Source of the DNA: a virus
Taxonomy: Duplodnaviria > Heunggongvirae > Uroviricota > Caudoviricetes
Reading direction: 5' to 3' (one strand)
DNA: 64,000 bases
Virus record (IMG/VR): IMGVR_UViG_2703718815_000003
The translations under genes were made by a program, and so were the position numbers. Below, piece after piece: positions 8,266 to 55,564 of this stretch (position 1 is its first letter; each line of letters starts with the position of its first letter). The notes under the pieces are model-generated. The model ran no database searches and was not told the origin of the DNA. It worked only from the letters and a program-made list of their open reading frames with translations.

Positions 8266-11200
8266 TTAGTTACGTTGAGTGTTTGGGTTGAGTGATCCGC
8301 CAGGGCGTTTCTCTTGAGCGATAGTCTCAAGCGCGATTGCTTTCATCCGTTGAGCGGCATTGTTCCATATGCTTTCTGTATCGCCGGATTCAGTTGTGCT
8401 ACCGTCACTATGGACGTTGATCTCAATTGATACCGGAGAAAGAACATTTCCTCCTCCACTCATACCATCGGTACTGAGCGTTACAGGGATTGTTCGACCA
8501 TCAGGCAATGGAACATACGCCTCATTCATATCGCCTTCCCCAAACAACGCCAATTGAGGTGAGTTGGCGATACCGCCTTTCTGGTATGCCCGGAGCGGGA
8601 TCACGCCGTCTTTTCCGAATATGCCACCATTTGCAAAATTCGGAATTGCAGGAATACCATTCGTGCCATCGGCAGCAGAACTGGTCAGATTGTTGAACCC
8701 GGAAGTTGAGCCAGAAGAACCGGACATCAATCCATCGAATCCACCACCAGCCCATACTGAAACCAACCCAGATGCAACTGTCGCGCCGAAATTCAACCAC
8801 TTATTACCAGAGCCGGAAGCATTAGCTCCAAGCATTGCAAACGCGGCAGACAGAGCACCGGTAACAGAGCTGAGGTTCTGCATCGAGAAGATGGAATCCT
8901 TCACTGCTTTTGTCTCAGCATCTTTGGCTTCGGTGCTATCAAATAGCCCTGATACCCAGCTACCAATCGCATTTGTTGCTGTGCCAATTGCGCTGGTGGT
9001 CTGCTGTGTCGTTTGCCCCAATCCAGTTACCGAACTGGACGTCTCCTTCGTGGCTTCTCCTACCGACTTGTCGCCGTTAACAGTGTTGCCCATTCGTACC
9101 CCTTGATTGGCAACGGCGGAAGCAACCCCGGTCAGCAAATTACCACTCTGTGAACTACCAGCTGCGGTGGTTCCCATCCCCAACATGTTCATTAGAGGCA
9201 GCGTGATCTGCGACTTCACGACCATATTGGTGATATCTTTCAAAATGGACTGAGATAGGCTGGAGAAGCTCATCTTCCCGTTAATAACGAAATCAGTCAG
9301 GACATCAGTTAAGCCACTAAACAAATCAGTCCAGGTGCTTTCGATCTGCTCTGCCAGGTTTTCGTATTCCAGTGCCAACTTCTGCGTCGCAGTCCCTGTC
9401 TCTTTAATGAGCGCGGTATTGCCAGCAGCAATAAGTTGATTGATTTTCTTTGTATAAAGCGCCACGACTTTAGGATCAGACGCCTTATCACGAAGTTCTA
9501 TCAACGCTTTGAGATTGCGGTTGTAGGTGTCTTCGAAATCAGCAACTTTCTCTTCGCGAGACGGCGTATAGCCAGCACTAATAATGGAATCCGCCTCCGG
9601 TGCCCAAGTGGAGATCATCTGCTCAACATTGCGGCGATTAAACATCTCGCGATATTCAGGTGTCGCATTTTTGAGGTCTTCAAGACGTTTTTTCGCCTTG
9701 TCGATCATCTCTTGAGTGATGAACTCGTTAGGAACCGCATTAGCCAAATCTGTCAGCGATTTCGTTGTATCGCGAAGAGACTGATCAAACGATACCGTAG
9801 CCTTAGAGCTTTCACCCATTTGCCCCATAAGCTGATCGGCTTTGTCCAGAGCCTTCTGGTATCCGGCTGCCAGTTTCTGTTGCGCTGCCTGTTCCTTCTT
9901 GGCCGCACGCTGCGAGGCGTTAGCTGATCGTTGGGCTGCTTTCTCGGCTGCTGCTGCATCCTGTTCACGAGCTTTAGTCAGTGCGGCAATGGCTGCGGCA
10001 CGCTCTTCATCGCTCATTTTCTCCAGAGAGCTGGCGCTGGATGCTTTCTGCAAATTAAGCTGCGTCTTGAGTTGTTTAGGCCCAATAATCGGCTTACCTT
10101 CGAAGTCCATCATCGGAGTGCCGTCAGGCAAAGTACGTTGATAAGTCGCAGAATCCATCTGGTTTCGCATATATTGCGCCAGCGCCTTCTGAGCTGCTTT
10201 ATCAGTTGTACCTAACCCAAGAACAGTCCCCTGGTTTGACATTACGCCCTTACCAGTTTTGGCCGCGTTATCTCTCTCGAACTCTGCCTGAGTCAGTTCC
10301 TGAGCAACGGTTTCCAAATGCTCCTGATAACCACGAATACTGCCTTGAAGTTTCTGGATCTGCTCGGTATTTCCATCTTTTTTGGCTTTTTCAAGCTGAT
10401 CATTAAGAGTCGCTATTTGCTTCTCGGTCGCATTCTTACGAGAAGAAAGTGAATCAACCAGTTTTTGCGCAGGCTCCAGATAGCTTTTGTTTACCGTTTC
10501 ACGTAACGGTGCCAATAGTTTGTTCTTTTCGTCATCAGAAAGTGAATCGTCATCATTGATTTTTTGGATCTTCTCCAGAGCCTCTTGACGAGCTTTAGCG
10601 AATGTTGCCGCAAAGTCTCTATTCTCTTCCCGTATTTTCTCTATCTGTGATTCTGCCGCATCTTTTGCAAGACGTTTGGCTACAGCAATGTCTCCGCGTT
10701 CAATTGCCCCAGTAGTTTTATCGCGTTTCTTACGAAGGTCATTTAGCTCATTTTCTATACGCTTACGTTCATCCTGATTAATCTTTACTGTAGTTCCGGC
10801 CATACCCGGCCCATAAACCACCTTTTCGCCAGATTTTAACTCTTGTTCCTTTTGCGTGATTTGTTGCTCAAGACGCGCTTTATACTCCGCCATCTGTGCA
10901 CGTTTGGCCGCTGTCATCGCTTCTGGTATTTTCCTAATCTCGTCAACGACCTTTGAAGTTTCGCTGCGGAGCATGGTCATGTACGTGATTAGGCCAGCAA
11001 CAGCTACAGTGGCAACTGTAAATGCTGCCCCTATAGGGTTTGCTGCAATGAACGCCGTTAATCCAGCAAAAGCGCCTTTAAGCCCCGTAATCTCCCCACG
11101 GATGGCGAAAATAAGAGAGGGGATCGGAGCCAGCCCCATACGTGCCGCACGATTGAATCGAGTTACTGCTGTAGCGCCGAGGTTAAATGGAGTCTGTATG

Positions 11201-13210: not shown

Positions 13211-13518
13211 CCTTCGCCAGCCGCTTTTTCGTTTTCTTCATCAATCACTTCCATAGCGAAGGTGAAGATCTGCTGGAGTTGCGGAACAGTCAGTTTTTCA
13301 AGAACTTCGTCAGGTACTGAAGGGATAACCTTACGAACCAGATCTGCATAAGCTGTCACTTGCTCAACAGGAGACATGTTCATGAGATCTTTGCCTTCCA
13401 TCTGCTTGATGGAAACAAAGAGGCCGACGGTCATTTCAACGATGGGATATTCTTTGCCACCAAATTTGATGCTTTTTTTCGGCGGCAGAATGGAGTCGAG
13501 ATCGAGTAATTTGGTCAT
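13201..13518 (-). CDS. tail assembly chaperone (lambda gpG-like)
   Basis: 105 aa acidic protein directly upstream of tape measure; AAGGA upstream of ATG. Confidence 0.6.
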   Translation of the reverse strand: MTKLLDLDSILPPKKSIKFGGKEYPIVEMTVGLFVSIKQMEGKDLMNMSPVEQVTAYADLVRKVIPSVPDEVLEKLTVPQLQQIFTFAMEVIDEENEKAAGEGAK

Positions 13519-38677: not shown

Positions 38678-40711
38678 TTACTTAACTTGGTGGCCTGGTT
38701 TAGCACCAGCATCCGGGCTTAACAGGAAGATATCTTTTCCGCCAGGGCCAGCAGCCATCACCATGCCTTCGGAGATACCGAAGCGCATTTTACGCGGTGC
38801 CAGGTTAGCCACCATAATGGTGTGACGACCAATCAGTGCCTGTGGGTCTGGATAAGCAGAACGGATGCCTGAGAAGACATTGCGTTTTTCACCGCCGAGA
38901 TCCAGCGTCAGGCGCAGCAGTTTGTCAGAACCTTCAACAAACTCTGCGTTTTCGATCAGTGCCACGCGCAGGTCAACTTTGGCAAAGTCGTCAAAGGTGA
39001 TGGTTTCCTGAATCGGGTCGTCTGCCAGCGGGCCAGTAACTGGCGCGGCAGCTGCTTTCACTTCTTCTTTGGATGCTTCCACCAGTGCTTCAACCTGCTT
39101 CATATCGATGCGGTTATACAGTGCCTTGAACGGATTCACTTTATGGCCCAGCAGCGGTTGCTGGATACCATCCCAGGTCAGTTCTGTATTCAGGAATGCT
39201 TCTGCACGTTCAGTCAGTTTCGGCAGTACCGGCTTCAGGTACGTCATCAGCACGCGGAACAGGTTAATGCCCATAGAGCAAATCGCCTGCAGATCGGCAT
39301 CGCGTCCTTCCTGCTTCGCCACCACCCACGGAGCCTGTTCATCGACATAGCGGTTAGCCAGGTCAGCCAATGCCATGATTTCACGGATAGCTTTACCAAA
39401 TTCACGGCTTTCCCATGCTTCGCCAATCACTTCAGCGGCATCAGTAAAGGTTTTGTACAGTTGCGGGTCAGCCAGTTCGCTTGCCAGCACGCCGTCAAAA
39501 CGCTTGTTGATAAAGCCTGCATTACGGGAGGCCAGGTTAACCACTTTGTTCACGATATCGGCATTCACGCGCTGAACGAAATCCTCCAGGTTGAGATCGA
39601 TATCATCAATGCGCGAAGAGAGTTTCGCAGTGTAGTAGTAACGCAGGCTGTCAGCGTCAAAATGATTCAGCCAGGTGCTGGCTTTAATAAAGGTGCCGCG
39701 AGACTTGGACATCTTCGCGCCGTTCACCGTCACATAGCCGTGAACAAACAGGTTGGTCGGCTTGCGGAAGTTGCTGCCTTCCAGCATGGCAGGCCAGAAC
39801 AGGCTGTGGAAGTAAACAATATCTTTACCGATGAAGTGGTACAGCTCGGCGGTGGAGTCTTTCTTCCAGTATTCATCGAAGCTGGTGGTATCGCCGCGCT
39901 TGTCGCACAGATTCTTGAAGGAACCCATGTAGCCAATCGGCGCGTCCAGCCAGACGTAGAAATATTTGCCCGGCGCGTTCGGAATTTCAAAACCGAAGTA
40001 GGGCGCATCTCGGGAGATATCCCACTGTTGCAGGCCGGATTCAAACCATTCCTGCATTTTGTTCGCCACCTGCTCCTGCAACGCGCCGCTGCGGGTCCAT
40101 GCCTGCAACATTTCGCTGAAAGAAGGCAGATCAAAGAAGAAGTGTTCGGAATCACGCATTACCGGGGTAGCGCCAGAAACCACCGATTTCGGCTCGATCA
40201 ATTCAGTCGGGCTATATGTTGCGCCGCAGACTTCACAGTTATCGCCGTATTGATCTGGCGCTTTACATTTCGGGCAGGTGCCTTTTACAAAACGATCCGG
40301 CAGGAACATGCCTTTTTCCGGGTCGTACAACTGAGAGATAGTGCGGTTTTTAATAAAACCGTTCTCTTTCAGGCGAGTATAGATAAGCTCAGACAACTGA
40401 CGGTTCTCTTCGCTGTGCGTCGAGTGATAGTTGTCATAGCTGATGTTAAAGCCTGCGAAATCAGTCTGGTGTTCCTGACTCATTTCGCCAATCATCTGCT
40501 CCGGTGTGATACCAAGCTGCTGTGCTTTCAGCATGATCGGCGTACCGTGGGCATCGTCGGCACAGATGAAATTAACCTCGTGGCCGCGCATTCGCTGGTA
40601 ACGAACCCAGACATCAGCCTGGATGTGCTCCAGCATATGGCCGAGGTGGATTGAGCCGTTAGCGTACGGCAGCGCGCACGTCACCAGAATTTTCTTCGCG
40701 ACTTGGGTCAT
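38678..40711 (-). CDS. metG: methionyl-tRNA synthetase (host-type MetG)
   Basis: 677 aa from [26 protein letters not shown]; class I motifs SIHLGH and KMSKS, CPKC/CEVC zinc knuckle, C-terminal tRNA-binding domain. Matches enterobacterial MetG as I recall it, not verified by search. Confidence 0.95.
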
Positions 40712-40868
40712 AGTAGGCATTACTTCTTTGTAGTGAAAAGGGGCTTGATAGTAACAAAATGGCCTTATGTCTGCCATGTGATAACAGCATTTCTCATAAA
40801 TGATTAAATGTCGTAGCTGGAGTACACTACAAGGCGACAATTGCGCAAATTAAAATAAAGGAGACGGG

Positions 40869-41969
40869 ATGAGCGAGTCCAAATCGCCGGATGCCCTGAG
40901 AGCAATGGTAGCCGGTACGCTGGCTAATTTTCAGCACCCAACCCTGAAACACAACCTGACTACGCTTAAAGCGTTACACCATGTTGCGTTGATGGATGAC
41001 ACACTGCATGTCGAACTAATCATGCCTTTCGTGTGGAATAAGCCTTTTGAAGACCTGAAAGAGCAATGTAGTGGTGATCTGCTCCGTATCACTGGCGCAA
41101 AGGCTATTGACTGGAAGCTGTCGTACAACATTGCCACGCTTAAGCGCGTCAAAAACCAACCAGGCATTAATGGCGTTAAGAACATTATCGCCGTCAGCTC
41201 AGGCAAGGGCGGCGTGGGTAAATCCTCCACGGCGGTAAACCTGGCACTGGCGTTGGCTGCTGAAGGTGCGAAAGTTGGTATTTTGGATGCCGATATCTAT
41301 GGTCCATCAATTCCAACCATGCTGGGCGCGGAAAACCAACGTCCAACCTCACCTGACGGTACTCACATGGCACCTATCATGTCTCATGGCCTGGCAACCA
41401 ACTCTATTGGTTATCTGGTCACCGACGACAATGCAATGGTGTGGCGTGGACCGATGGCGAGCAAGGCGTTAATGCAGATGTTGCAGGAAACATTGTGGCC
41501 TGATCTGGACTATCTTGTTCTCGATATGCCGCCGGGCACTGGTGATATTCAGTTGACGCTGGCGCAGAACATTCCTGTAACTGGTGCTGTTGTGGTAACT
41601 ACGCCGCAAGACATCGCGCTGATCGATGCGAAGAAAGGCATTGTGATGTTCGAAAAAGTCGAAGTGCCGGTACTTGGTATCGTCGAAAACATGAGTGTGC
41701 ATATTTGCAGTAACTGCGGTCATCACGAGCCAATTTTTGGCACCGGTGGCGCAGAGAAACTGGCCGAGAAATACAACACGCAGTTGTTAGGCCAAATGCC
41801 ACTTCATATCTCTCTTCGTGAAGATCTGGATAACGGAACACCAACCGTTATTAGTCGTCCAGATAGTGAATTTACGGCTATTTATCGTGACCTCGCAGAT
41901 CGCGTTGCTGCCCAAATGTATTGGCAAGGTGAAGTAATACCTGGCGAAATCGCATTCCGCGCAGTGTGA
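40869..41969 (+). CDS. apbC: Fe-S cluster carrier ATPase ApbC/Mrp
   Basis: Mrp/NBP35 P-loop SSGKGGVGKS and CSNCGH motif; divergent from metG as in enterobacterial chromosomes. Confidence 0.95.
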   Translation: MSESKSPDALRAMVAGTLANFQHPTLKHNLTTLKALHHVALMDDTLHVELIMPFVWNKPFEDLKEQCSGDLLRITGAKAIDWKLSYNIATLKRVKNQPGINGVKNIIAVSSGKGGVGKSSTAVNLALALAAEGAKVGILDADIYGPSIPTMLGAENQRPTSPDGTHMAPIMSHGLATNSIGYLVTDDNAMVWRGPMASKALMQMLQETLWPDLDYLVLDMPPGTGDIQLTLAQNIPVTGAVVVTTPQDIALIDAKKGIVMFEKVEVPVLGIVENMSVHICSNCGHHEPIFGTGGAEKLAEKYNTQLLGQMPLHISLREDLDNGTPTVISRPDSEFTAIYRDLADRVAAQMYWQGEVIPGEIAFRAV

Positions 41970-42006: not shown

Positions 42007-42396
42007 CTACATCACGGGACAATCATCAAACTCGCCACTTCTTGCGTCGTTGATAATGTGAGTGATCACACCAAACACGGCATTGCTGCCCGTGCATCCA
42101 TCGTCATCCTTTGGCAATGCTTCCTTCTTACCGGTTCTTAAATCCTCCAGATGCTGACGTGGGTACTTCCGGTATCTTTTTACGCGATATTCCCCATCCA
42201 GAGCGCATACAAGCAGAGAACCATCAACCGGGGTAAGTGAGGAATCGACCACCAGCAATGCACCCTGTAATATTCCCTCACGATGATGACTATCAGCTGC
42301 CCTCATGAAGTAGGTCGCTGAAGGATGTCTAATTATCTGCTGATCAAGAGAAATACGGCTCTCAGCATAATCCGCCGCAGGAGAAGGGAAGCCCAT
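42007..42396 (-). CDS. UmuD'-like S24 peptidase-fold protein (pre-truncated UmuD homologue)
   Basis: Starts MGFPSPAADYAE...HPSATYF, i.e. at the UmuD segment after the RecA-cleavage site; Ser (AADSH) and Lys (VKRYRK) positions retained; no umuC partner; AGAGG RBS. Confidence 0.75.
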   Translation of the reverse strand: MGFPSPAADYAESRISLDQQIIRHPSATYFMRAADSHHREGILQGALLVVDSSLTPVDGSLLVCALDGEYRVKRYRKYPRQHLEDLRTGKKEALPKDDDGCTGSNAVFGVITHIINDARSGEFDDCPVM

Positions 42397-42412
42397 AATA
42401 CTCGCCTCTTAA

Positions 42413-42432
42413 TACTGTATACACATACAGTA
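42413..42432. promoter_or_regulatory. LexA (SOS) box
   Basis: TACTGTATACACATACAGTA, perfect CTGT-N8-ACAG, about 17 bp upstream of UmuD'-like start. Confidence 0.75.
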
Positions 42433-42728
42433 TATATTGAAGCTATATATTTTTGAACTCTATCTCTTAAAAAAGATGTTAATAAGATGCTAACTATTGA
42501 AAGGCATAAATATATACAATTCAAACAAACGTTATTTTTAACAAATTTTTTCTTCCCATTGACTTTTTCGAACGCCTTGTCCGGTCTAAAGTGCGCAGAA
42601 GTCACTTTTTCCTTCCTGAGTTATCCACAGGCTTATGCACTTGCATGAAAAATCTATTCACACTATCTTAATTCGCAAGACACTGATGTTGCAGTATTGA
42701 GGGTATGTTGGGTTAAAAATAGACATTA

Positions 42729-42758
42729 AAAAGCCCAGTTGACTAGGCTGGGCTTTTT
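42729..42758. terminator. bidirectional intrinsic terminator
   Basis: aaaagcccag ttgactagg ctgggcttttt. Confidence 0.55.
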
Positions 42759-43058
42759 AAAAGGAAACAGAGTTTGCGGCTCTGTTCCTGAGCCATAAGT
42801 ATCTGGCGACTGAATTAAGATTAACCGAATGTACTGGATTCATCAAGAAAGGTTGAGTGGTCATACCAGGTAATAATGACCATTTACTAAACATCGTTGT
42901 TCTCAAAGAAGATTTAAGTCCAGGTTTTTGGTGACTCTAAAACCTTACCTTAACTCGAAATCGTGCCGTAAGTATCTGGCGACTACAGATATTGCAACTG
43001 CAAAGGCAAGCCCAAAGGTATTTGCAGCTAGGCGCGATAAAACTAAGTGAGGCCTGTT

Positions 43059-43142
43059 ATGGTTAACTTACTGTTCAAAATCGTGCCGCCGATGTTCGCG
43101 ATTATCAAAGCGATCATTGAGTACGTAAACCAGCGTCCATAA
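43059..43142 (+). CDS. small hydrophobic peptide (27 aa)
   Basis: MVNLLFKIVPPMFAIIKAIIEYVNQRP; GTGAGG 6 nt upstream of ATG; hairpin terminator follows; below ORF-track threshold. Confidence 0.35.
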   Translation: MVNLLFKIVPPMFAIIKAIIEYVNQRP

Positions 43143-43155
43143 CGCTAGTTGCTAC

Positions 43156-43180
43156 AGGCCCCATCAAGAGCATGGGGCCT
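43156..43180. terminator. hairpin terminator
   Basis: aggccccat caagagc atggggcct 9-bp stem. Confidence 0.5.
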
Positions 43181-43197
43181 CTTTATCGTACTATTGC

Positions 43198-43824
43198 TTA
43201 TTTTTTACGGACTGAGTTGTTCACTGCTCTGGCAATCTTCTCCCGCAATTGCTGCGTTCCGTGGTACTGAACCGCAATATCTCTCAACTCGTTCACCAGT
43301 TCTCGAATCTGGTGATCTTTAAGCTCATTATTTGGGTGATTGGTAACAACTCTGGTTAATTCACCCTTGTCTTTTGCTCTTACGTATGCAGCTCTTGTGC
43401 ATTCGACCCATGTATTACCGCCTACATTAACTTCGTAGATTAGGCTGGACTTATCTGTCAATTCGGAACAAATACGGGCCGTGGTCTGGCAACTAGAGCA
43501 TTCGCAGTTATCGCGGAAACCGTGATCTACCGGTCGAGAAAGAGGTTTAACTTTTTCATCCAACTTCATCACAGCATCGTGATAAGCGTTCCAGCCGTCA
43601 TCTTTACCAAGTTGATAAATCTCTGAAGGCTCCATGTAGTCTATATCGCAACCTTCTTCATCCGATCTATCTGGTCGCTTCCCTGGTAATCGCTCATAAA
43701 AACGATTTCTGTCTCGACGTTCGGCTCTCAGTGCTAACGCAAGAAGTTGCTCAAGCGAGGTATTTGCACCAGCAATAATTTTATTGAGAATATCTTCTGT
43801 GAGATCTTTCGCTACCGTGCTCAT
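43198..43824 (-). CDS. hypothetical protein
   Basis: 208-aa ORF with Cys cluster CECSSC. Confidence 0.5.
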   Translation of the reverse strand: MSTVAKDLTEDILNKIIAGANTSLEQLLALALRAERRDRNRFYERLPGKRPDRSDEEGCDIDYMEPSEIYQLGKDDGWNAYHDAVMKLDEKVKPLSRPVDHGFRDNCECSSCQTTARICSELTDKSSLIYEVNVGGNTWVECTRAAYVRAKDKGELTRVVTNHPNNELKDHQIRELVNELRDIAVQYHGTQQLREKIARAVNNSVRKK

Positions 43825-55381: not shown

Positions 55382-55564
55382 CTTCTTTCTCGATAGGTAA
55401 GTAAATACCTATTTTTGCATTTGATTTTATGTCTGGCAATCAAATAAAACGCGCCAGAAATGCAAACGAGAAGCTCTCTGGCGCGTTTTTGTGGTGCTGG
55501 GTATGTGATTGGCTTACCCAGCACTATAAAGCTCTCTATGGGCTTTATTTTCAGTAGGGGAACG

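Follow-up and report, generated by a model that had tools for sequence, protein, structure and literature searches.

In one layout class among type I toxin-antitoxin modules, the antisense RNA is encoded 5' of the toxin mRNA without overlapping it, as in ShoB/OhsC, TisB/IstR-1, Zor/Orz and DinQ/AgrB (PMC8594479). The dql genes were defined by the similarity of their leader (5' untranslated region, 5' UTR) to that of dinQ (PMC5066626), and the plasmid-borne dqlB/agrB pair was shown by experiment to be an addiction system (PMC12365149, PMC12317039). We analyzed a locus of similar layout in a 64,000-nt stretch of DNA from a virus of the Caudoviricetes (IMG/VR record IMGVR_UViG_2703718815_000003). 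This whole stretch is called the window hereafter; all coordinates refer to it. Judged by sequence comparison, positions 42726-43180 probably form an RNA-controlled pair of genes, a type I toxin-antitoxin module with a trans-encoded antitoxin, a reading to which we give a probability of about 0.72. The family appears to be new and its kind, the trans-encoded type I toxin-antitoxin system, already known. As regards toxicity and expression, the peptide is a predicted type I toxin only.

Three features that characterize this subclass were found at the locus: a gene for a hydrophobic peptide of less than 60 amino acids (aa) that is truly coding, judged by its 27 codons, its ratio of non-synonymous to synonymous polymorphism (pN/pS) and its grand average of hydropathy (GRAVY); a separate, non-overlapping small RNA (sRNA) gene on the opposite strand, 5' of the mRNA and less than ~300 nt away; and at least 15 nt of sRNA:mRNA complementarity kept in evolution. 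The sRNA gene lies ~110 nt upstream of the 5' hairpin of the mRNA and points away from it. Since the sRNA gene is divergent, non-overlapping and 5' of the mRNA, the module falls in the same layout group as the four systems named above. The two RNA structures, the duplex between them and the peptide are all conserved in diverged relatives. A first-pass annotation made from the sequence alone had remarked that the layout resembles small toxin loci under antisense RNA control, and the upstream divergent sRNA, the co-varying duplex and the conserved open reading frame (ORF) described below bear this out.

Beyond the blastn matches on plasmids given below, further relatives were retrieved from genomes, viral contigs and metagenomes with the leader motif AACTGCAAAGG-N14-TTTGCAGCYAGGC. 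The pattern used on metagenomes was too loose, most loci from L036 onward being chance matches, and these were filtered by the leader and peptide motifs; after de-duplication, ~15 distinct locus variants were obtained. The order of the parts is the same in all intact loci with an upstream region: leftward sRNA gene, 5' hairpin, target site, invariant hairpin, Shine-Dalgarno (SD) sequence, ORF or ORFs, and terminator.

Two direct repeats link the sRNA gene, the leader and the ORF. Repeat 1, taagtatctggcgact, is exact over 16 nt with starts at 42796 and 42969, and it grows to 20 nt with one mismatch (42792-42811 and 42965-42984). The first-pass annotation had seen this repeat and placed it slightly off, at 42797 and 42967. 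Repeat 1 goes beyond chance, an exact direct repeat of at least 16 nt being found in 0.2% of 1000 dinucleotide shuffles of 42400-43400. The two starts of repeat 2, aaatcgtgccg, are 42958 and 43078, not 42957 and 43083 as first given; it does overlap the ORF, as was claimed, and grows to 14 nt with one mismatch (42955-42968 and 43075-43088). Alone it is not significant, since a repeat of at least 11 nt is found in 13% of the same shuffles. Copy 1 of repeat 1 is the 5' end of the sRNA and copy 2 belongs to the 5' UTR of the peptide mRNA. As to repeat 2, a strand of a conserved helix in the leader, X1, lies within its upstream copy, and its ORF copy corresponds to the codons K-I-V-P. Both repeats had been proposed as parts of an antisense layout: this stands for taagtatctggcgact, the putative antisense determinant, which would act in trans on the 5' UTR, and does not stand for aaatcgtgccg, which is no antisense site in the coding region.

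The minus strand carries the following features of the sRNA gene.

42841..42846, minus strand: -35 element TTGATG of the sRNA promoter, read from the sequence, in an arrangement kept in relatives.
42818..42823, minus strand: -10 element TAATCT of the sRNA promoter, 17 nt from the -35 element.
42728..42811, minus strand: predicted antitoxin-type sRNA of ~84 nt, in which a 5' tail that is single-stranded is followed by stem-loop 1 and an intrinsic terminator (covariance model R1).
42792..42811, minus strand: predicted sRNA seed, the 5' tail AGUCGCCAGAUACUUAUGGC, which is copy 1 of the 20-nt direct repeat (repeat and duplex analysis).
42763..42788, minus strand: stem-loop 1, a 9-bp hairpin GGAACAGAG-CCGCAAA-CUCUGUUUCC (covariation).
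42726..42760, no strand assigned: sRNA terminator, a perfect 13-nt inverted repeat between A and T runs (stem covariation).

Because copy 1 is followed by a hairpin and a terminator and is preceded by a promoter, the minus strand is expected to encode an RNA of ~84 nt whose 5' tail is the reverse complement of copy 2. The predicted +1 is the A at 42811, 7 nt downstream of the -10 element, and it coincides exactly with the end of the direct repeat. The promoter pattern TTGAAG/TTGATG-17-TAAGCT/TAATCT/TAAGAT-6-+1 is kept among the 17 distinct sRNA-gene regions that were extracted. The covariance model R1, built from 15 relatives, scores the sRNA stretch of the window at 97.5 bits. Across relatives, pairing in the consensus fold (free 5' tail, stem-loop 1 and terminator) reaches 96.3%; its covariation score is 0.307, shuffles giving 0.176 +/- 0.017, and it is far above slid controls. 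Stem-loop 1 has invariant inner GAG/CUC pairs and a covarying lower stem. The terminator could work in both directions. Finally, one divergent upstream sRNA gene was found in 18/18 of the intact loci searched whose record covers the upstream region. R1 has a second match in the window, at 55447-55544, which is an ordinary intergenic terminator region. The prophage sRNA svsR, which lies at the 3' end of cI (PMC12803456), is unrelated.

For the pairing between sRNA and mRNA at the window site, RNAduplex gives -38.5 kcal/mol versus -19.8 +/- 2.8 kcal/mol for shuffled seeds. Cognate duplexes are 20-25 bp long with energies of -38 to -47 kcal/mol, and the same site is the best one on the mRNA in 12/12 loci. 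Covariation was counted on 11 distinct diverged loci: the intermolecular duplex of 24 pairs is 96.2% paired, and 10 of these pairs are changed on both sides versus 2.4 +/- 1.3 in shuffles (0/500 reach 10), with slid registers ~30% paired. The seeds differ between clades (…AAGUAUCUGGCGAC, …AAAACACUGGCGAC, …AUGUAUCUGGCAGC, …AUGUGUCUGGCUAC), the change being always found in both genes. One-sided changes within the first 20 nt are all of the type A in the sRNA gene versus G in the mRNA, or C versus T, each yielding a G-U wobble; the reverse, disruptive combinations were not found within the first 20 nt of the duplex among the loci compared. Such an asymmetry is expected only if the RNAs pair.

On the plus strand, the mRNA would comprise a structured leader of ~140 nt, a 27-codon ORF and its own terminator, as follows.

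42922..42945, plus strand: conserved 5' hairpin of the mRNA, AGGUUUU...AAAACCU with the loop UUGGUGA (helix 1 of alignment A3).
42961..42967, plus strand: leader element X1, UCGUGCC, which pairs with Y and closes the leader domain (A3 helix 2).
42965..42984, plus strand: predicted sRNA target site GCCGUAAGUAUCUGGCGACU, located 75-95 nt upstream of the start codon and formed by copy 2 of the 20-nt repeat.
42972..42992, plus strand: target hairpin GUAUCU / AGAUAU with the loop GGCGACUAC (A3 helix 3).
42998..43027, plus strand: leader hairpin CUGCAAAGG...UUUGCAG with a nearly invariant stem, the source of the pattern used to search for relatives.
43031..43037, plus strand: leader element Y, GGCGCGA, the partner of X1 (A3 helices).
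43047..43052, plus strand: SD sequence GUGAGG, with a predicted probability of being unpaired of 0.13 in the full-length mRNA.
43059..43142, plus strand: ORF of the putative toxin, 27 aa, MVNLLFKIVPPMFAIIKAIIEYVNQRP (conserved length, pN/pS, amphipathicity).
43081..43087, plus strand: element X2, UCGUGCC, codons I-V-P, within the second copy of aaatcgtgccg, a possible alternative partner of Y.
43156..43180, plus strand: mRNA terminator hairpin, its stem of 9 bp (6 of them GC) enclosing a loop of 7 nt (sequence).

The whole leader is 94% paired across the alignment, with 8 pairs changed on both sides versus 3.4 +/- 1.2 in shuffles. Five of the 7 pairs of the 5' hairpin are changed on both sides (93.9% paired), X1:Y is 95.9% paired with U-G/U-A/C-G and C-G/A-U exchanges, and in the target hairpin, which is 86.6% paired, two-sided changes affect 2 pairs. 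The leader hairpin at 42998..43027 is neutral on structure, 8 of its 9 pairs never varying. The loop GGCGACUAC of the target hairpin presents the complement of the first 7 nt of the sRNA. The start of transcription must lie upstream of the 5' hairpin; several -35/-10 candidates aligned by eye were set aside, none of them being conserved with correct spacing in the window-type clade. The translation signals that the first-pass annotation had described are present, with the ATG at 43059-43061 and GTGAGG at 43047-43052, separated by a 6-nt spacer. The 9-bp-stem hairpin that it had described after the ORF is present as well; in every relative, a different GC-rich hairpin with a T-run stands at the same place, directly after the last small ORF.

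The minimum free energy fold of the window mRNA joins Y to X2 and not to X1, enclosing the SD and the AUG. Switches between alternative helix partners are known from the hok, dinQ and tisB mRNAs. The perfect match of X2 to Y is limited to the window-type clade; in other clades a GTA valine codon puts an A-C mismatch midway in the 7-bp Y:X2 helix. Thus, X1 and X2 could be alternative partners of Y, a clade-limited possibility that is not established. A pairing of CCUUAC, on the 3' side of the 5' hairpin, with the SD looked plausible by eye in several members and is not claimed. A role of the ORF as a leader peptide or attenuator for a downstream gene was rejected, since a terminator of its own follows the ORF and the neighboring genes beyond it run on the opposite strand.

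The ORF listing starts at an upstream GTG, giving 31 aa; relatives do not conserve this GTG, which is located within the SD. The 27-codon length is the same in the 8 intact relatives with a single ORF (e.g., MADLLIKIVPPIIVIVTAIIEYVNQRP and MVNLIFKIVPPLVVIVQAIVEYVNQRP), and paralogous ORFs of 25-28 aa are found in other relatives. The window and its relative L098 differ by 9 synonymous and 2 non-synonymous changes in the ORF, and differences among relatives are mostly synonymous: pN/pS is below 0.7 in 26/27 computable pairs, the remaining pair giving 1.15. Judged by these values, the ORF is coding and conserved as a protein. The window peptide is hydrophobic (GRAVY 0.86). Its helical hydrophobic moment of 1.78 is reached by 0.1% of shuffles, TisB and DinQ scored alongside giving 1.21 and 0.72, and its polar residues lie on a single stripe of the helix (positions 3, 7, 10, 14, 17, 21 and 24).

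Some plasmid relatives carry tandem ORFs on one mRNA, e.g., MQMLLLFLKLAHPVAVIIMTLLGYWKDR followed by MVSLLLKILPPLVAIITTIIDYINKR; in others the first type stands alone, and single ORFs of either type occur among the relatives. A gap-free alignment of the two types covers 26 positions, with M1, L4 and I15 invariant, K7 near-invariant and P11, E/D21, Y/F22 and R26 frequent, indicating that they are paralogues. The tandem arrangement was observed in L005 (2640-2830), L004 (2840-3030), L007 (1650-1850) and L009, to be compared with L006 and L008. In window-type loci an ORF1-like SD precedes an ORF2-type coding sequence, and the loci with ORF1 only have an ORF2-like SD, GAGGCTCA; this mix suggests recombination between the paralogues. 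An exact look-up of the window peptide in public sequence collections returned only hypothetical or uncharacterized proteins; DqlB is widely named. Among the papers searched, none has the peptide or seed sequences, and none deals with type I toxins in SSU5 or in phage-plasmids.

With its surroundings, 601 bases in all, the module matches E. coli plasmids of ~108-112 kb at 99-100% identity; with the SSU5-type phage-plasmid pLF82 (Escherichia phage Cyrano), the identity is 98.7%. By megablast, the module is carried by 124 of 5426 complete E. coli genomes (~2%), at 115 places on plasmids and 10 on chromosomes, and it is found in 98 PLSDB plasmids; a few chromosomal lambdoid prophages also carry the same stretch. 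A distant blastn search against plasmids brought up loci 60-85% identical on Citrobacter, Enterobacter and Kosakonia plasmids, with 1-2 tandem paralogous peptide ORFs behind the same leader. Where relatives are on plasmids, replication genes stand no more than ~1 kb from the module (repA in L004, RepB in L007), and the carriers are low-copy phage-plasmids. Two loci depart from the common form. L108 is a decayed copy on the minus strand of the stored locus, with an sRNA model match at 10217-10300 and an in-frame TAG in the ORF; a deletion between the repeat copies has fused the sRNA body to the leader, and both promoters are lost. Such a decay would be expected of a costly gene after loss of its control. 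L134 (1-700) has an intact leader and the ORF MVNLIIKIVPAMIVIIEAIFEYVNQRP.

How close the module stands to described families was assessed by similarity searches. At gathering thresholds, Rfam has no match anywhere in the 64-kb window; at relaxed thresholds it returns only sub-threshold AgrB, Thr-leader, RNAI and OrzO-P matches, which are largely terminator-driven. The window sRNA scores 27.6 bits against AgrB (RF02891), whose threshold is 40 (E = 0.083), and the sRNAs of other members give weak RNAI or OrzO-P matches instead. Conversely, the best non-self matches of R1 are K-12 agrB (20.7 bits), K-12 agrA (19.2 bits) and pOXA-48 agrB (22.8 bits), at annotated or expected positions and with a rough E of 1e-4 to 1e-2. 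The GAG/CUC inner stem and the loop shared with AgrB may reflect either homology or convergence, remote homology being no more than possible. On the protein side, Pfam and NCBIfam give no relevant match for five family peptides at E up to 10; this includes the NCBIfam models of DinQ (NF041472) and DqlB (NF041473), whose controls score 54 and 73.5 bits and match each other. A family profile was scored against nine known type I toxins, the TisB sequence among them being confirmed by its models. DqlB scores 4.2 bits (10/1000 shuffles) and LdrD 2.9 bits (19/1000), neither being significant after correction for nine tests, while DinQ is below its own shuffles and ZorO (-4.4 bits) and ShoB (-1.7 bits) are within theirs. 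Blastn-short and nhmmer comparisons of the family leader with the dinQ and dqlB loci gave nothing significant, whereas the dinQ-versus-dqlB control gave collinear matches. A tblastn search of plasmids with DinQ gave nothing, the query being short and of low complexity. The SOS control that marks DinQ and TisB was sought through LexA boxes in the 64-kb window, and there is none at the toxin promoter.

These results bear on the question of whether the module is simply a member of the DinQ/AgrB-Dql family, and hence already known, which we consider unlikely. The layout is the same, the peptide has the 27 aa of DinQ, AgrB is the best though weak Rfam match of the window sRNA and R1 finds the agr genes in return, stem-loop 1 has the AgrB-like inner GAG/CUC stem with a similar 7-nt loop, and DqlB is the top-scoring known toxin in the profile. 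However, neither NCBIfam model recognizes the five peptides, DinQ does not rise above its own shuffles, the leader has no similarity to that of dinQ or dqlB, the sRNAs of other members lean weakly to RNAI or OrzO-P, and the toxin promoter lacks a LexA box. Another explanation could be that the peptide is a small membrane protein repressed by the sRNA, with a regulatory or accessory function for the phage (transporter, lysis, superinfection), and not a toxin. Many enterobacterial membrane peptides of 20-30 aa are indeed regulators, and the module also occurs in integrated prophages beside early-region genes, where addiction is less obviously needed. Still, a dedicated divergent sRNA, a perfect duplex of at least 20 nt, a leader both long and structured, an SD that is sequestered and a terminator of its own together are a hallmark of type I systems (PMC8594479). 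Duplication of the toxin ORF in tandem and the decay of one copy by a stop codon suit a costly gene, and the module lies near replication genes on plasmids, so that we regard a regulatory peptide as rather improbable, somewhat more so than plain DinQ/Dql membership.

Control of the peptide by a cis-antisense transcript overlapping its coding sequence has very little to recommend it. A minus-strand promoter-like site does run from 43129 to 43101 within the ORF (TTTACG-17-GATAAT, 9/12 match to sigma-70), and the second copy of aaatcgtgccg is also there, but consensus promoter matches in the region are at chance level (3 found versus 2.6 expected from shuffles). Moreover, both copies of aaatcgtgccg are on the same strand of the same mRNA and cannot pair with each other; the repeat alone is within chance, and its ORF copy is inexact in other clades. 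Short ORFs and short repeats are common, and L108 shows a deletion between the repeat copies, as might be expected if the repeats were DNA-level features such as protein-binding sites or recombination scars beside a chance ORF, with no RNA regulation. This is the least probable of the explanations considered and scarcely credible given that one-sided changes in the duplex are wobble-only, that the promoter, fold and terminator of the sRNA are conserved with covariation, that ORF length is conserved with a low pN/pS, and that the exact 16-nt repeat is so rare in shuffles.

Several points weigh against the type I toxin-antitoxin module that we propose. The evidence for it is wholly comparative. 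No plus-strand sigma-70 consensus site was found in 42440-43400 that could serve as promoter of the peptide mRNA, and the T-tail of its terminator is weak (CTTTAT). Two adjacent prolines in the middle of the peptide (positions 10-11) are unusual for a transmembrane helix. Gene conversion between the direct repeats could mimic two-sided covariation; what argues specifically for RNA pairing is only the restriction of one-sided changes to wobbles, which amounts to a handful of independent events. When the target site was blocked in silico, the predicted accessibility of the SD was unchanged in 12/13 members, indicating that the sRNA probably does not act by SD refolding. Finally, L134 has no sRNA gene in the ~500 bp upstream that its record covers; the putative toxin may be an orphan there, or may be served by an sRNA gene at another site.

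By analogy with dinQ/agrB, zorO/orzO and tisB/istR-1, a constitutive and short-lived sRNA would pair with the leader, leading to a block of translation and/or cleavage by RNase III; in these terms, the sRNA would block a ribosome-loading site further upstream and/or give rise to a substrate for RNase III. The full-length mRNA would be poorly translatable, its SD being predicted as paired, and would probably be processed before becoming active, as in such systems. Once the element is lost or synthesis of the sRNA stops, the stable mRNA would be translated, and the peptide would then damage the inner membrane and kill or arrest the cell. The most likely role, by the same analogy, is addiction (post-segregational killing), which would stabilize the phage-plasmid, the related plasmids and the prophages: a module ~1 kb from repA/repB on low-copy carriers makes post-segregational killing the most economical reading. 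The copies in integrated prophages and the place beside a LexA-controlled humD-like gene leave room for abortive infection or induction-linked killing.

Since no curated protein or RNA model recognizes the module, standard annotation and toxin-antitoxin surveys report nothing there. If it is an addiction module, it would help to explain the stable carriage of phage-plasmids and would interfere with curing strategies, as recently shown for the overlooked dqlB/agrB of pOXA-48 and IncX3 plasmids (PMC12365149, PMC12317039). Seed covariation forming specificity groups, tandem paralogues and a decayed copy also make the family a useful set for the study of sRNA-toxin diversification. A wider reading is tentative, and we hold it for possible but less likely than not: that the locus represents an undescribed type I family confined to Enterobacteriaceae phage-plasmids, plasmids and lambdoid prophages, in which one sRNA, perhaps a remote relative of AgrB, governs a modular mRNA with 1-2 paralogous amphipathic pore-type peptides. 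If the kinship with AgrB were true, DinQ/Dql would be joined to a wider superfamily of addiction or abortive-infection modules on mobile elements. Under this tentative reading, the module could be the main, so far missing, stability determinant of SSU5-like phage-plasmids, and it could be coupled to the neighboring LexA-controlled humD region during induction.

In RefSeq records, the module is flanked on one side by metG, apbC and an S24-peptidase (HumD/UmuD-like) gene and on the other by a leftward operon of small phage early-region genes, and the 800 bp between these flanks (window 42397-43197) are without annotation. The adjoining metG (methionine-tRNA ligase) and apbC/mrp copies (38678-41969) are full-length, and RefSeq gives them these names on pAVS0223-B, the identical plasmid. 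The sequence TACTGTATACACATACAGTA at 42413-42432, a near-consensus LexA box, lies 17 nt upstream of the humD/umuD-like S24 peptidase gene (42007-42396, minus strand) and overlaps a plus-strand promoter-like site at 42409-42438; it is the only strong LexA box in the window and lies ~500 bp from the 5' hairpin of the mRNA. The humD-like gene and the toxin module are also adjacent in L012 and L002. Between the humD-like gene and the sRNA terminator, ~290 bp (42440-42725) are unannotated and contain a plus-strand ORF of 53 aa (42487-42648); they are bounded by the terminator that they have in common with the sRNA. Conceivably, a rightward transcript under LexA control stops at this terminator or continues past it, antisense to the sRNA.

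The plasmid relatives have a conserved block of ~130 nt just past the sRNA terminator, with a near-consensus promoter (TTGACAT...TATAAG) at its start and ...AAAATCAACTCTTGTACTGAAAAGAATCCTTACTAGAATACTCACC within it (L004 2300-2500, L005 2100-2290, L006 1330-1450, L007 1150-1270 and L008 1095-1215). It has no Rfam match and may be another small transcript. In L011, a chromosomal prophage carries a family member ~10 kb from the SraC/RyeA-SdsR/RyeB locus (13350-13494; Rfam 159 and 112 bits), which we take to be a prophage insertion region.

Among known systems, dinQ/agrB and the plasmid dqlB/agrB share most with the module: a divergent, non-overlapping sRNA upstream of the toxin mRNA, an sRNA 5' region that pairs with 20-35 nt of a long 5' UTR, and a hydrophobic toxin of 27-31 aa with a private terminator, DinQ having 27 aa like the window peptide. 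The dqlB/agrB versions of pOXA-48 and pOXA-484 are likewise near repA, and these act in addiction; with both pairs there is also the weak reciprocal likeness between the sRNAs. However, the window module has one sRNA gene where dinQ has agrA and agrB, its peptide family falls outside the DinQ and DqlB models with a leader unrelated in sequence, and some of its relatives carry two tandem paralogous toxin ORFs on one mRNA. Unlike dinQ, the toxin promoter has no LexA box, and the peptide is far more amphipathic than DinQ (hydrophobic moment 1.78 versus 0.72).

That TisB forms an amphipathic helix with a charged or polar stripe is established knowledge, and the window peptide resembles it in this respect. 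As in tisB/istR-1, the sRNA would bind far upstream of the ribosome-binding site (~75-100 nt), with the SD sequestered in the primary transcript. By contrast, the TisB models match the TisB control and none of the family peptides, the toxin promoter is without LexA control, and the proline pair at 10-11 has no counterpart in TisB. In zorO/orzO and shoB/ohsC, the 5' end of the sRNA pairs over 18-20 nt with the toxin 5' UTR. The module has the same gene layout as zorO/orzO of E. coli O157:H7 and shoB/ohsC (PMC8594479) but no peptide similarity in profile scores; a weak likeness to zorO/orzO comes from the sRNA of the Enterobacter relative L005 only, which matches Rfam OrzO-P at 34.2 bits versus a threshold of 60. 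With hok/sok and ldr/rdl, the proposed module would share addiction on plasmids and prophages, a small membrane toxin, long-range folding of the mRNA and an antisense RNA that is unstable. Pfam gives no match to Hok or Ldr, LdrD having a marginal profile score of 2.9 bits. The antisense RNAs of these systems are cis-encoded and overlap the mRNA, whereas the window sRNA has a separate gene and would work via a repeated sequence.

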